Source of the DNA: Promethearchaeota archaeon
GTDB lineage: Archaea; Asgardarchaeota; Lokiarchaeia; Sigyniarchaeales; SOKP01
Length of the DNA stretch: 10,447 nt
Direction of reading: 5' to 3'
Assembly (NCBI GenBank): GCA_013375475.1
Contig: JABXKD010000107.1
Span: forward strand, 1 to 10,447
Shown: in pieces, positions 4,186 to 10,345 of the stretch
Layout of the letters: each line of letters starts with the position of its first letter
How positions within the stretch are numbered: position 1 is the first letter of the stretch
Translations under genes and position numbers: made by a program
Notes under the pieces: generated by a model
Databases searched by the model: none
Told to the model about the DNA's origin: nothing
What the model saw: the letters and a program-made list of their open reading frames with translations, nothing else

Positions 4186-4799
4186 CTTGCTACCGAGGAC
4201 TATTCTTACGCGGGATTATATTCTATACCACAGGGATTGCAGATAAAATGGTTAGTTACTTCGATTTCTGATAATGTCGAGAACTGGAGAATAAGGTAAA
4301 TGTATATCGTGGAGAAAAATATTCCGAGATGGTTGCGAATATTGAAACATTTGTATATAAACACCCTGAAGGATTGTCAAGAGGATTATATAATGGGTCA
4401 GGAAACGATTTGTACCTCTTACCAGTTAACATCCCTCATTACTTAGACTCCTTTAACTCTAGCATCCCTCTACTTGGTAGAGCGTATAGTTTTGTTACCA
4501 ACAACAGTATTAATTTTGATTATACTCTGATTGGTTCTAACGATACGGTCCAATACACATTTAACGATTACGGATTACTAAAATCTTACCAGATTTTTTA
4601 TAATCACACTTTAGCTTTCGTGCTCAAGTTAAAGAGTTTCACTTTGGGAGGTTTCGACGAAGGATTGATAATGGTTATAGTAATCAGTTCAATCTCTTCC
4701 GCTATATTAATAGCGTTTATTTTTGTTAGAAGAAGGAAGCTTCAAAAAAGAAAAGATCAGCGTAAAAAATCTTCAAGACTCTTAAGGAAAATTAGATAG
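4186..4799 (+). pseudogene. Probably frameshifted/N-terminally decayed gene for a C-terminally membrane-anchored surface protein (intact part is ORF 4329-4799)
   Basis: ORF 4329-4799 ends in a hydrophobic helix (LIMVIVISSISSAILIAFIFV) plus a very basic tail (RRRKLQKRK...) but has no signal peptide. Its frame is open from 4275 (..KVNVYRGEKYSE-M). A different frame, open 4186-4296, reads LATEDYSYAGLYSIPQGLQIKWLVTSISDNVENWRIR, which looks like its upstream continuation across a 1-nt shift. The 3' end overlaps the convergent LRR gene by 18 nt. Confidence 0.5.
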
Positions 4800-6584
4800 A
4801 TCATATTTTTTCAGTATATTCATATATTCTTCCAACCCTTCTGGAGTTAGTTTATATTCTCTGTTTTCTTGAATTACGTAATTCTTTTTCATTAAGGAAG
4901 CTAGGACTTTTGTAAGGATAGATACTTTGATTGATAGTGGTTTAGACCTTAAATCAGACCAAACTACATGGTGATTATTATATAAAATCCAGTAGATTAT
5001 ATGCTCATAGTTTTTCCCTTTTCGAATCGGAAACGGAGGCAATTTAATTTTATCAGAAGTTCCATGTAAAAATGTATGTTCTTTTGTCTCCGCTATCGCA
5101 TTGATAATCGTTTTTAATTCAATCCCTCCTTGAATTTTTCTTATATCAATGCTAGATAGGACGGAATTCCAAGATTCAATCTCAATCTCTCCTATATAAA
5201 CGCGTTTCAAGTTTTTAAGTTTGGTAATGGATTTCGGAAGTTCTTTTAAATTATTCCCTCCTAAATTAAGAATTTCTAACTGTTTCAGATTTGCAATACA
5301 ATCGGGAACATGCTGAATTCCTTGATTAACGAGTCTTAGCTCAGTTAAGTCCTTTAATAAGCATAATTTTTCTGGAAAAAGTCCGATCGGAGGCATTTCA
5401 GGGTTCTCAGATGTAATCCTATTAACATGCCCTTCATTATTTAGTGTGTATACCATCAACCTATTTTCGTACCAGCTAATATCGTAATAACTAGACTCCC
5501 TAGTGTTACGTTTACCTGTTTCCTCTTCCCAGTCGTTTTTCCATCCTTCTATAACGCAATCTGCGTTTAATACCGGTCCTCCTAGTGGAAAAACACCTCT
5601 TAAAATTTCGAGCAACGCCAATACCGGTGCCTCGTTCGATAATACCCCCTCTTCTAAGTATCTTTGCATACTCGAAGGTCGATTAGCAAATTCCCACACA
5701 TAACCCGGAACTTTTGTAAAACCTCTGTTTCCGTGGAATATAAGACGATTTATGTTATTGGAAATTTTTAAAGGTCGCGAGATATCTCGAATGATACAGT
5801 CAGATATGCTAAGAATTTTCAGTGATTCTAACTTGTTAACGCTTTCCGGAAGTGAGTCAAAGTTAAATCTCGAGATGTGAAGGACTTCTAGGTTTGATAG
5901 CGAAGAGAGCGAAGAAGGAAGAGAATCAAGTTCGAACTTAGAACCATAAAGATTTATGTTTGTGATGTGGCGGTTTTCAATTATAGTATTACTATTCTTC
6001 GGCCACGAATTCGGATGTATTTCTAAAAATTCTTGTCGGATCGCCGATAAGTTTGGAACTCTTTCCGAGAGTAATTCAAAACTTTCTTCATTTTCAAGAA
6101 TCTTCTGATTTCTTAAACACTTCCAATCTAACACGAACTTCGCTTCCATAGGATCAATGTCGTAAATTCTGCCTACTCTGCTTAGAATCGTGTTTTTTAG
6201 AGCTAGGGCGAACGAAAGATTACTTGATTCTAAATAATCGACAACCATCTTTAAGAAATACGTGTTCTTATCGTGAAGAATAGCCCATTGTATTACTTCT
6301 TCGCATCGTTCTGGAAAGTTATTCAGCAACACCAACATCGCTACCAATCGAACGAGTTTTGATTCGTCCGATATTAACGACTGCTCGAGAACCTTAAACA
6401 TTTGGTCGTCCGAAAATTTTAATTTCCCCATGACTTCAAGCGTTTGAATTCTGAGTTCAGAATTATCGCTCCCATTCAGTATCGAGGTTAATAACCTTAA
6501 CGCCTCTTCCCTCGAAGCTTTACCGCTACAGACATTCTGATAAATCTTATCTAAAGTTAGAATACCTCTCATTAATGTTAACAA
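4782..6584 (-). CDS. HEAT-repeat + leucine-rich-repeat protein with C-terminal winged helix-turn-helix domain
   Basis: N-terminal HEAT-like helices (ELRIQTLEVMGKL...LISDESKLVRLVAMLVL). Two LRR blocks (LPSSLSSLSNLEVLHIS / LPESVNKLESLKILSIS; FPEKLCLLKDLTELRL / VPDCIANLKQLEILNLGGNNLKELPKSITKLKNLKRVYI). The C-terminal ~89 aa form a wHTH ending YKLTPEG. Track start is TTG at 6584; ATG at 6572 is an alternative. Confidence 0.88.
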   Translation of the reverse strand: MLTLMRGILTLDKIYQNVCSGKASREEALRLLTSILNGSDNSELRIQTLEVMGKLKFSDDQMFKVLEQSLISDESKLVRLVAMLVLLNNFPERCEEVIQWAILHDKNTYFLKMVVDYLESSNLSFALALKNTILSRVGRIYDIDPMEAKFVLDWKCLRNQKILENEESFELLSERVPNLSAIRQEFLEIHPNSWPKNSNTIIENRHITNINLYGSKFELDSLPSSLSSLSNLEVLHISRFNFDSLPESVNKLESLKILSISDCIIRDISRPLKISNNINRLIFHGNRGFTKVPGYVWEFANRPSSMQRYLEEGVLSNEAPVLALLEILRGVFPLGGPVLNADCVIEGWKNDWEEETGKRNTRESSYYDISWYENRLMVYTLNNEGHVNRITSENPEMPPIGLFPEKLCLLKDLTELRLVNQGIQHVPDCIANLKQLEILNLGGNNLKELPKSITKLKNLKRVYIGEIEIESWNSVLSSIDIRKIQGGIELKTIINAIAETKEHTFLHGTSDKIKLPPFPIRKGKNYEHIIYWILYNNHHVVWSDLRSKPLSIKVSILTKVLASLMKKNYVIQENREYKLTPEGLEEYMNILKKYDLSNFP

Positions 6585-10300: not shown

Positions 10301-10345
10301 GCCTTGAGAAAAGTAAGGGAAGAATTAAAAAATAAGAAAGTATAG
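7334..10345 (+). CDS. Tandem winged-helix (x2, possibly a third HTH) + tetratricopeptide-repeat protein; putative ligand-responsive transcriptional regulator
   Basis: Two N-terminal homologous wHTH units (aa ~6-88 NFEYIILWML..STLSKYLNKL..YKITKIG; aa ~96-179 NYEHIIHWAL..SSLSKALNSL..YKITPEG). An HTH-like segment SPEEFSLKYDIKRTTLDFFVDKI lies in the middle. The C-terminal half has many TPR-like units (e.g. NLFDSYGEMLMLFGDYEKAIQKFEKALKLEP). No Walker A/B motif seen. T-tracts follow the stop. Confidence 0.88.
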   Translation: MSLDKPVKYPPGDVLDPKLGRNPNFEYIILWMLNYNEECSWADFKREIGESTLSKYLNKLKEEKYIEHSYNRYKITKIGKTRFNDLSLDKDEIKKKIDIPPKSILKKRNYEHIIHWALYNNESLRWSDFRSELSINQSSLSKALNSLKIKKFVINENKVYKITPEGRSQYSQMLRDYDLDHQSILEDETNRIDEITEKTSEFFERFEIDDSELKFRFLNNILKLEYSKAEDFVREDEFNKIILYLSINHPDQYPNYISPEEFSLKYDIKRTTLDFFVDKIVEENIYPIKFFNIITEDDKKYYFQSNGELEKILNAIVEKHITKFTYLNKFNSTSEVEGEIVDLGQVLNQILKRVSGLLFNEALKDSLKKFLPEYINYLAYKIETEKKLIRSEDKLEAAQWQTFQSVFRGYNTALILNGNGNGEQYYSLHKMFFEALDVAYFSKIDFVGDKEFEEEYISNKNLEAFRKTVRMLERIKVVKAKEILNTNFKAPESVEKLILDDLILSSEKDFKASILTSEKLISKKPESYIGYLFHALTLFGLNDFETALKIVEKGLAISKHYSLLCVKAQILIKKAKAKKALKLIEEELGKNPKNVYLMRTKFIILLTDEACWSECAEKPLDVIDSIITLRPDDLSFYVLKAAVLCVMQKYKEVKKLLNKEVNLNIVTKNPRIYTTAFFILAYSYIARGKFEKALRVGDQAIFQYDSHPTSYFTKALAIGYSLIYDKDNKEITEDNFLEAINKALSLDSIDFHKAKYYQLMSDVFIETRRIEDAIEAIDTAITLDPSNLGIYQIRMKLLMMDNKSDEAIALVNQLYDDKYIDKKDSTKIRSFLIFVKADKTTDPEERMKLIEKSFEEIEPIIDENSEDIGILNNLTVLYGHLGRKEDAIRAAETMISLDPSDGNLFDSYGEMLMLFGDYEKAIQKFEKALKLEPKGWFAFQTYLKMGTCYEKLLDLEKAEENYLKGKELTDRMHPLKKDMYFYKASEKLDALRKVREELKNKKV

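Follow-up and report, generated by a model that had tools for sequence, protein, structure and literature searches.

Regulators of the RRNPP group of Firmicutes and their phages (Rgg/SHP, PlcR/PapR, NprR/NprX, Rap/Phr, PrgX, and AimR/AimP) carry a DNA-binding domain fused to a tetratricopeptide repeat (TPR)-type sensor and adjoin one or more very short peptide genes. The short hydrophobic peptides (SHPs) are about 20 to 25 amino acids (aa) long, basic at the N-terminus and hydrophobic in the C-terminal half, and are often divergent from their regulator; in streptococci, Rgg/SHP pairs control radical S-adenosylmethionine (SAM) clusters for ribosomally synthesized and post-translationally modified peptides (RiPPs). 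Other TPR proteins bind the C-terminal tails of proteins, with Hop/STIP1 and SGTA recognizing EEVD, PEX5 recognizing PTS1, and APC3/CDC27 recognizing IR tails. The RRNPP traits used for comparison below follow PMC7564271 and PMC12700828 in part; in PMC12700828, the word “archaea” appears only in the reference list. Here, we describe a locus of comparable layout in a Promethearchaeota archaeon, located on a stretch of DNA that makes up the entire 10,447-base contig C8 (hereafter, the window) of an assembly of 3.92 Mb in 288 contigs (32.5% G+C, 100% completeness, 6.41% contamination). The window contains a gene for a 1003-aa protein with winged helix-turn-helix (wHTH) domains and a long TPR array, a palindrome, three divergently oriented micro-open reading frames (micro-ORFs; pepC, pepB, and pepA), and a gene for a HEAT–leucine-rich repeat (LRR)–wHTH protein. 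Every element of this layout, proposed earlier from the letters of the window (the sequence-only reading), was found in its place.

The locus shares with RRNPP systems the fusion of a DNA-binding domain to a TPR-type sensor, the adjacent peptide genes, which were found both in the window and beside homologous receptors, the candidate operator in a shared control region, and peptide variants that track receptor subfamilies, and with many rgg/shp pairs the divergent orientation. It differs in its archaeal host, in two or three winged helices in place of an XRE-type HTH, in about 14 canonical 34-residue TPRs within 1003 aa that are nearest to OGT, APC/C, Hop, and TOM70, in having three peptides per receptor without secretion features or a conserved exporter, importer, or protease, and in the small protein of 55 to 102 aa (sp80) that many relatives add. 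The RRNPP analogy of the sequence-only reading thus holds for the gene logic but not for homology, considering the winged helices, the canonical OGT/APC-like TPRs, and the lack of RRNPP proteins among the Protein Data Bank (PDB) matches listed (see below). To our knowledge, neither a transcription factor controlled by a genetically encoded peptide nor peptide signaling has been described in archaea. In the literature listings and abstract openings that we searched, we found neither such a cassette nor any RRNPP-like archaeal system described. Judged from its genes, the locus would represent a TPR receptor-regulator with adjoining peptide genes, assembled from non-homologous parts in another domain of life.

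Micro-ORFs beside wHTH-TPR genes

The three micro-proteins of the window are basic at the N-terminus, contain a short β-strand-like run of I/V and a turn motif (G/S-Y-N-P), and end in an aromatic residue, and each micro-ORF has an A-rich leader with a Shine–Dalgarno (SD) motif, AAGGT or GGAGGTG, and 7 to 12 T after the stop codon (Table 1). All three ORFs of the sequence-only reading are present with their own SD and T-run, but the start of pepA had to be corrected: the second ATG (6784) is the most likely start codon, rather than the one at 6799 that would yield a form of 27 aa, because GGAGGTG lies 6 nucleotides (nt) ahead of it and the ortholog on metagenome contig L131 has the same SD and second ATG. 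The micro-ORFs lie within a tandem repeat (167-nt unit, 2.1 copies, 81% matches), of which no further copy was found elsewhere in the genome, and an element repeated between them may be an internal promoter or binding site. No Rfam family (E up to 1) or tRNA overlaps the micro-ORF region. A genome-wide search returned no additional YNP-type micro-ORFs; a relaxed motif gave 21 matches, of which 3 were those of the window and the other 18 were dissimilar outside the motif. No listed holder of the stretch is recorded as RNA, and four runs compared with it, one of them labeled metatranscriptomic but probably DNA, yielded only contig pieces that do not bear on transcription. A low-depth contig (2.6) of DNA run X2 joins position 6885 to 7053, skipping exactly one 167-nt unit, which reflects either a two-peptide variant in the population or collapse of the repeat during assembly.

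Related micro-ORFs accompany other members of the wHTH-TPR family. At the paralogous locus on contig C233 of the same genome, two micro-ORFs of 23 and 29 aa lie upstream of the TPR gene on the divergent strand, with the same SD spacing, and encode peptides clearly related to those of the window (..IIIKNAG.N.. and ..GTNP..). Both peptide set and peptide order are retained on the orthologous metagenome contigs L131 (78% identity) and L134 (69%), where each position has its own character (IIKNAGYNPIYI, VVKYA[ST]YNPIYI, and ARF[AS]SY[NY]P), and the trio is therefore old rather than the product of a recent triplication. Other genomes of the same genus have 1 to 3 micro-ORFs of 22 to 26 aa upstream of homologs of about 990 aa; these belong to three types in a fixed order and are preceded by GAGGTAAAA-type SDs.

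The association was also assessed without regard to position. A profile of 21 peptides from 9 other genomes was compared with all 21,870 ATG-started small ORFs (15 to 45 aa) of the genome, and the first 3 ranks were taken by C233_46877 (E 3.6e-5), pepB (0.0049), and pepC (0.014), with the second C233 peptide ranking 13th and pepA 23rd. A wider sample consisted of 78 loci from named metagenome-assembled genomes (MAGs), some apparently the same genomes as in the same-genus set. It comprised 786,081 bases with 4284 small ORFs, and family N-termini, 90 in total, were present at 77 of the loci. Excluding the profile seeds, 12 of the 16 matches (E < 1, one profile iteration) were divergent and 50 to 1000 nt ahead of a family gene, a class that comprises 255 of the 4284 small ORFs (6%); the corresponding hypergeometric p of 2e-12 is too small, since the relatives are not independent. 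Seemingly downstream matches on L059, L073, L104, L106, and L111 all proved to lie upstream of a second family gene (5 of 5 examined). Among genes with at least 1000 nt upstream, those with peptide matches numbered 20 of 40 in the size class of ≥930 aa, 3 of 16 at 780 to 929 aa, and 3 of 17 at 560 to 779 aa, counts that are descriptive and not a test, as the profile seeds were chosen by position. The sequence-only reading had suggested checking whether YNP micro-ORFs recur next to homologs of the 1003-aa protein, and homologous micro-ORFs do so on C233, L131, and L134, in many Loki-type MAGs, and at half of the full-length genes.

Further micro-ORF types were observed at some of these loci. 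A second type of 26 aa (..GLIKINNYGQN..LRDLLK), which scores weakly or not at all with the peptide profile, follows the first peptide in the subfamily of about 635 aa (L104:3596-3676, L111:4700-4780, and L106:8221-8301; -). In one subfamily, a micro-ORF preceded by an SD of its own comes after the peptide and encodes a Zn-ribbon-like product of 32 to 49 aa that contains two CxxC pairs (MKKRIRINCMKCG...; L059:1708-1806, L060:1488-1586, and L073:10300-10449, all -).

Signs of translation come from several features of the peptide genes. An SD-like 5-mer is present at positions -18 to -4 in 31 of 45 peptide genes; the corresponding figures are 152 of 4239 for the remaining small ORFs at these loci and 301 of 2311 for the long ORFs genome-wide. 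The last residue is F, Y, or W in 34 of 45 distinct peptides versus 16% of the small ORFs of the same loci. The ORF is present at every homologous place found, and length differences among aligned homologous micro-ORFs keep the frame. Differences per codon position amount to 0.21/0.17/0.37 in the best-sampled peptide type, 0.21/0.18/0.25 in the second, and 0.29/0.33/0.35 in the third, so that the coding signature is clear for one type and weak for two. This weak bias, together with conservation of the entire intergenic region, non-coding parts included (mean column identity of 77% among the window, L131, and L134), would fit a reading in which the 167-nt repeat is a non-coding element composed of binding sites, small RNAs, or tandem promoters and contains ORFs only incidentally. 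We regard that explanation as extremely improbable, because dozens of loci with diverged DNA retain the ORF together with its start, stop, and SD, the amino acid motifs persist, the length differences preserve the frame, SDs and aromatic C-termini are enriched, and Rfam gives no match.

If translated, the micro-ORFs could also act in cis as leader or arrest peptides of the TnaC or Erm type. They resemble TnaC, ErmCL, and SecM in a length of 20 to 30 aa and in conserved near-C-terminal residues including the proline of N-P; in addition, the SDs are strong, a T-run follows each stop, and the next gene on the same strand in the window is that of the LRR-wHTH protein. However, a co-directional ORF of at least 80 aa occurs within 300 nt of the last peptide in only 4 of 30 judged cassettes, the next ORF is on the other strand in 12 of 30 and at least 360 nt away in 14 of 30, and the downstream gene varies among loci, none being conserved. 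Moreover, 3 or 4 tandem ORFs, each with its own SD and terminator-like T-run, are unlike the usual attenuator, and we consider a leader function very unlikely.

The wHTH-TPR protein and its control region

The architecture of the 1003-aa protein was read from profiles and from a structural model. Pfam assigns HTH_45 to residues 50-83 and HTH_34 to residues 116-173, with HVO_A0261_N as a further winged-helix family, and many TPR families to residues 509-964 (TPR_1/2/8 and others; E 2.6e-20 for TPR_2, 1.2e-16 for TPR_1, and 1.6e-12 for ANAPC3). The AlphaFold2 model (mean pLDDT 77.3, pTM 0.56) shows helix-strand-strand units at residues 25-75, 110-162, and 259-304, the third of which follows a long helix, as well as paired helices from about residue 460 to 1002 and a poorly predicted segment at residues 386-423. 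The wHTH units are of the helix-helix-helix-strand-strand form, and the TPR array consists of about 14 canonical tandem 34-residue repeats according to both the Pfam profiles and the model. The DNA-binding part is thus made of winged helices rather than an XRE-type HTH, as the sequence-only reading had it. A profile of 19 homologs gave 190 matches to PDB sequences at E ≤ 0.01, and the 60 listed include consensus TPR proteins, OGT, CDC27/APC7, BBS4, Hop/STIP1, TOM70, and SGTA, whereas the 40 listed rows of a Foldseek comparison of the model with the PDB comprise OGT, SPINDLY, TTC7B, APC/C subunits, and LbcA, all long canonical TPR proteins. No RRNPP protein is among these 60 sequence matches or 40 fold rows listed, for which reason we place the TPR protein outside the RRNPP family, although it may act like an RRNPP receptor.

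The N-terminal 460 residues match at least 1000 proteins at E ≤ 0.001 (8000 scored candidates). The named homologs all come from Asgard-type MAGs, assigned to Promethearchaeota, Promethearchaeia, or Hod-, Hermod-, Thor-, Odin-, or Lokiarchaeota and including “Loki_b31” and “Loki_b32,” in keeping with the earlier guess that the system is probably Asgard. With the whole protein as query, matches at E ≤ 1e-20 were obtained in 24 of 41 genomes (G000 included), distributed by family as 22 of 24 (f1), 0 of 11 (f2), 1 of 1 (f3), and 0 of 4 (f4), the zeros meaning only that the full-length query had no match in the f2 and f4 genomes searched. The viral contigs searched contained no relative of the TPR protein. 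At least 8 family copies were counted in the genome of the window, among them a full-length paralog on C233 (41% identity), a paralog on C224 that is cut by the contig end (72% identity), and five shorter paralogs. We read the cassette as a probable regulatory unit specific to the Loki-type lineage of Asgard archaea.

In the control region, the palindrome lies between two divergent TATA-like boxes. ACTTC-N(0-8)-GAAGT or its inverse was found ahead of 34 of 84 family genes, at 67 to 119 nt from the start codon (median 89), compared with 11 of 3269 background windows (230 nt; 0.3%), and the N4 spacing of the window is the commonest form. The palindrome is retained, with partly changed letters, in the orthologs L131 and L134 and in the paralog on C233. 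Its symmetry and position fit a dimeric winged-helix protein acting on its own divergent control region, which makes it a candidate operator. Across the genome, ACTTC-N4-GAAGT occurs at 15 sites, only one of them near a family gene; this number is of the order expected by chance on a rough estimate, so that no regulon can be named. A scan for sigma-70 promoters and hairpin terminators returned nothing useful, the bacterial-type models being unsuited to an archaeon. Another inverted repeat, CGCGATA-N16-TATCGCG, was noticed by eye at 6662-6691, in the interval from pepA to the 5' end of the LRR-wHTH gene, and is unlike the ACTTC/GAAGT palindrome.

Partner genes and the role of the micro-proteins

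We tentatively favor an autoregulated switch in which the micro-proteins are putative intracellular ligands of the TPR array. The TPR protein, probably dimeric, would use its wHTH domains to bind the palindrome and would thereby control its own promoter together with that of the micro-ORFs. The micro-proteins would remain in the cell, where their YNP...aromatic C-terminal part would dock on the concave face of the TPR superhelix and alter DNA binding, creating a feedback switch; the three position-conserved peptides would be either non-equivalent ligands or one ligand with competitors. A ligand role is supported by the match of the TPR array to peptide- or tail-binding TPR proteins, both by profile (Hop/STIP1, SGTA, TOM70, and CDC27) and by fold (OGT and APC/C). 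The tail-binding proteins resemble the system described here in their canonical TPRs, and most putative ligands (34 of 45) have a conserved aromatic last residue. However, the tail-binding proteins are chaperone, import, and ubiquitin-ligase adaptors rather than transcription factors, and their ligands are the tails of full-size proteins. A co-fold of TPR residues 185-1003 with pepC scored 0.00 in both runs, a value that counts neither way, the partner being shorter than those of the tool's calibration set.

A more frequent companion of the family than the peptides is sp80, a single cluster of 51 small proteins of 55 to 102 aa encoded on the divergent strand within 1.1 kb of a family gene in 47 of 77 loci. 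These proteins start with M-[AV]-Q, contain a conserved [YL]N[AP][KR]Y.EE motif, and are encoded by the first divergent gene beside wHTH-TPR genes of every size class (for example, L080:4542-4826, L060:1907-2128, and, in the genome of the window, C233:47190-47459; all -). Among the 79 genes with enough upstream sequence, 24 combine sp80 with peptides, 21 carry sp80 alone, 6 carry peptides alone, which is the case of the window, and 28 carry neither. Pfam contains no family for sp80, and a look-up in the ESM Atlas was uninformative, giving only unnamed viral clusters with fewer than 170 shared features. Homology between sp80 and the peptides was considered and found unsupported by hmmsearch and hhalign (probability 1%, 6 columns aligning YNPxY with [YL]N[AP][KR]Y), leaving a weak lead.

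A number of observations weigh against the ligand reading. A system in which the peptides are nothing but the regulated product would account for their co-location and co-inheritance equally well. No peptide match was found for 20 of the 40 full-length genes or for 13 of 16 and 14 of 17 of the shorter family genes, so that either the family is able to work without peptides or divergent peptides escape the profile. Because close relatives contribute many of the loci, the counts overstate their independence; two of the three peptide types show only a weak codon-position bias; and sp80 is the more widespread divergent partner (45 of 79 genes) and is missing from the window. One genome has a second complete peptide trio at a distance of 2.4 to 2.8 kb from the TPR gene (L044:5082-5465, identical to L091:2163-2546; -), behind the gene of a 204-aa protein. 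Finally, radical-SAM genes lie right after the TPR gene in related subfamilies, pointing to peptide modification.

These radical-SAM genes bear on a serious, though in our judgment somewhat unlikely, alternative, in which the micro-proteins are the regulated output (RiPP-like precursors, antimicrobial or toxin-like peptides, or structural or adaptor proteins) and the regulator senses something else. In the subfamily of 846 aa (L125, L107, L130, L118, and L051), the TPR gene is followed by one or two intact radical-SAM genes encoding 238-aa proteins, such as the CxxxCxxC-containing pair at L125:5978-6694 and 7593-8309 (+; Pfam Radical_SAM E 4e-17 and 2e-18), and all three of these loci with enough upstream sequence (L125, L118, and L051) carry a “..NPAY..Y” micro-ORF. 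A degenerate radical-SAM-like gene of 220 aa follows many of the TPR genes of about 990 aa (for example, L058:7985-8647, +). An M14 carboxypeptidase gene lies directly after the peptides on L131 (L131:1-661, -) and is 89% identical to that at 2573-3931 of the window, located 2.8 kb from the peptides. The occurrence of several tandem, diverged copies is typical of precursor families, and the additional trio of L044/L091 lies away from the regulator. As in radical-SAM RiPP clusters, tandem short precursor-like ORFs stand beside a regulator, and related subfamilies have 1 or 2 small radical-SAM genes.

On the other side, no modifying gene stands beside the cassette in the clade of the window or in the peptide-richest clade: tblastn detected no radical-SAM gene in L131-L134 (which reach 1.3 to 3 kb past the TPR gene) or in the window, and none was found in the peptide-richest clade (L080, L082, L083, L091, L076, L100, L088, L075, and L086). 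A modifying enzyme together with a precursor was found only in L125, L118, L051, L107, and L130. The commoner radical-SAM-like gene has lost an 18-residue stretch with the CxxxCxxC motif and hence the cysteines that bind the Fe-S cluster. The radical-SAM proteins are only 220 to 238 aa long, the intact ones match only the generic Radical_SAM family of Pfam, all NCBIfam matches are far below the cut-offs, and no SPASM, twitch, or RiPP recognition element (RRE) model comes near its cut-off. No transporter, immunity, or protease gene is common to the peptide-bearing loci, and no enzyme, transporter, or protease family is shared by all 29 of them.

A further alternative is a pheromone loop, as in Rgg/SHP and AimR/AimP, in which the peptides would be exported, perhaps trimmed, and re-imported or sensed before binding the TPR regulator. 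This is suggested by the arrangement of a short peptide gene divergent from that of a DNA-binding TPR protein, with an operator-like palindrome between them, by peptide variants that differ among receptor subfamilies in the manner of pherotypes, and by the resemblance to SHPs in size (22 to 26 aa) and basic N-terminus. The peptides of the window share with SHPs their length (22 to 24 aa), basic N-terminus, and divergent orientation, but the hydrophobic part of the YNP type is limited to 5 or 6 residues at the end, and most other types are charged throughout. The micro-proteins are too short or too polar to contain a signal-like or membrane-spanning hydrophobic stretch. Their surroundings show no conserved exporter, oligopeptide importer, or processing protease; of the 29 peptide-bearing loci, 9 and 8 have genes of major facilitator superfamily (MFS) transporters, several kb away and within syntenic groups of relatives. 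In addition, the receptor is not an RRNPP homolog, and the viral contigs are devoid of relatives of the TPR protein. The sequence-only reading had itself recorded that the peptides have no Sec-like h-region and that the window has no exporter, which extends to the relatives, where none is conserved. Given peptides without a signal or membrane segment and no conserved exporter, the quorum-like loop that it envisaged is unsupported, and we judge it improbable.

The HEAT-LRR-wHTH gene, which the sequence-only reading had included in the cassette, was rejected as a member, because it is absent from the ortholog L131 (78% identity), where the peptides are directly beside the M14 peptidase gene, and has few, mostly fragmentary matches elsewhere. 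The N-terminal 500 residues of the LRR protein have only 4 further cassette-proximal places (L075, L039, C233 = L003, and L054), mostly fragments, besides occurrences on the more distant L105 and L118. Over its last 87 residues, the LRR protein shares 54% identity with residues 95-181 of its TPR neighbor, so that its wHTH is a close paralog of wHTH2, the pair corresponding to 4791-5054 (-) of the LRR gene and 7616-7876 (+) of the TPR gene. The two proteins may have similar DNA targets and different sensor domains, LRR in one and TPR in the other.

Among the remaining genes, a 210-aa protein (MSH.YLGPAYRIE..RLVIRCY..) is encoded after the TPR gene in 4 of 4 orthologous loci (L131:4528-5160, L132:3327-3959, L133:3332-3964, and L134:3745-4377; +); by eye, we take it to be similar to GNAT acetyltransferases. 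In the rest of the window (Table 1), the 156-aa protein has a C-terminal hydrophobic anchor and no Pfam family, and a homolog of the DnaJ-domain protein (62% identity) is also encoded near a family gene in L042.

Table 1. Features of the window, with positions in the 10,447-base stretch.
Feature	Position	Strand	Basis and remarks
wHTH-wHTH-(third winged-helix-like)-TPR protein, 1003 aa	7334-10345	+	ORF, Pfam, AlphaFold2 model
wHTH1	~7406-7588	+	Within the 1003-aa TPR gene
wHTH2	~7661-7852	+	Within the 1003-aa TPR gene
TPR superhelix	~8711-10342	+	Within the 1003-aa TPR gene
TATA-like box TATAAATA, towards the TPR gene	7272-7279	+	Read from the sequence; putative
Palindrome ATACTTC-ACAC-GAAGTAT, candidate wHTH operator	7231-7248	.	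Sequence; 86-103 nt ahead of the TPR start codon
TATA-like box TATATATA, towards the micro-ORFs	7211-7218	-	Sequence; invariant in the window, L131, and L134; putative
Micro-ORF pepC, 22 aa, MNGKGKEIIVQNAGYNPIYIIF	7071-7139	-	SD AAGGT 7148-7152; T-run 7055-7061
Inter-ORF element copy 2, AATTTCACGC.CACAAA..T.A.CAAATTAAC, 32 nt	7022-7053	-	Direct repeat D3; conserved in L131 and L134
Micro-ORF pepB, 24 aa, MNRKENGKEIVVKYASYNPIYIIY	6904-6978	-	SD AAGGT 6987-6991; T-run 6888-6899
Inter-ORF element copy 1	6856-6887	-	Direct repeat; conserved in L131 and L134
Micro-ORF pepA, 22 aa from the second ATG, MKKANKEVYVRFASYNPRFMSF	6716-6784	-	SD GGAGGTG 6791-6797; T-run 6707-6715
HEAT-LRR-wHTH protein, 600 aa	4782-6584	-	Pfam LRR_14, LRR_8 (strong); HEAT_2 weak (E 5e-4, below cut-off)
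Rest of contig: DUF2785 protein, LCIB-type beta-carbonic-anhydrase-like protein, 117-aa DnaJ-domain protein, M14 carboxypeptidase, 156-aa protein	25-4799		Pfam

Implications for gene regulation in Asgard archaea

The analysis reveals a large, Asgard-specific family of DNA-binding TPR proteins that is repeatedly paired with unannotated micro-protein genes and a recognizable candidate operator, and, with it, a conserved class of archaeal micro-proteins missed by gene callers. Bolder readings are conceivable. In one, to which we give little credence, the micro-proteins would be secreted pheromones and the wHTH-TPR proteins their cytoplasmic receptors, forming an independently evolved, RRNPP-like communication system; if true, this would be the first peptide-based cell-cell signaling in Archaea, with many receptor/peptide “pherotypes” per genome. 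In a second bold variant, the radical-SAM enzymes of related loci would cross-link the aromatic-N-P motif, and the peptides would form a new class of RiPPs in archaea, served by a regulator or scaffold of the TPR type. If the peptides are modified products, they would constitute a new archaeal peptide family, and if they are ligands, two domains of life would have arrived independently at the pairing of a TPR receptor with a neighboring peptide gene. The parts, namely the protein, the peptides of 22 to 24 aa, and a DNA site of 18 bp, are testable in vitro and could show how genes are regulated in uncultured relatives of eukaryotes.

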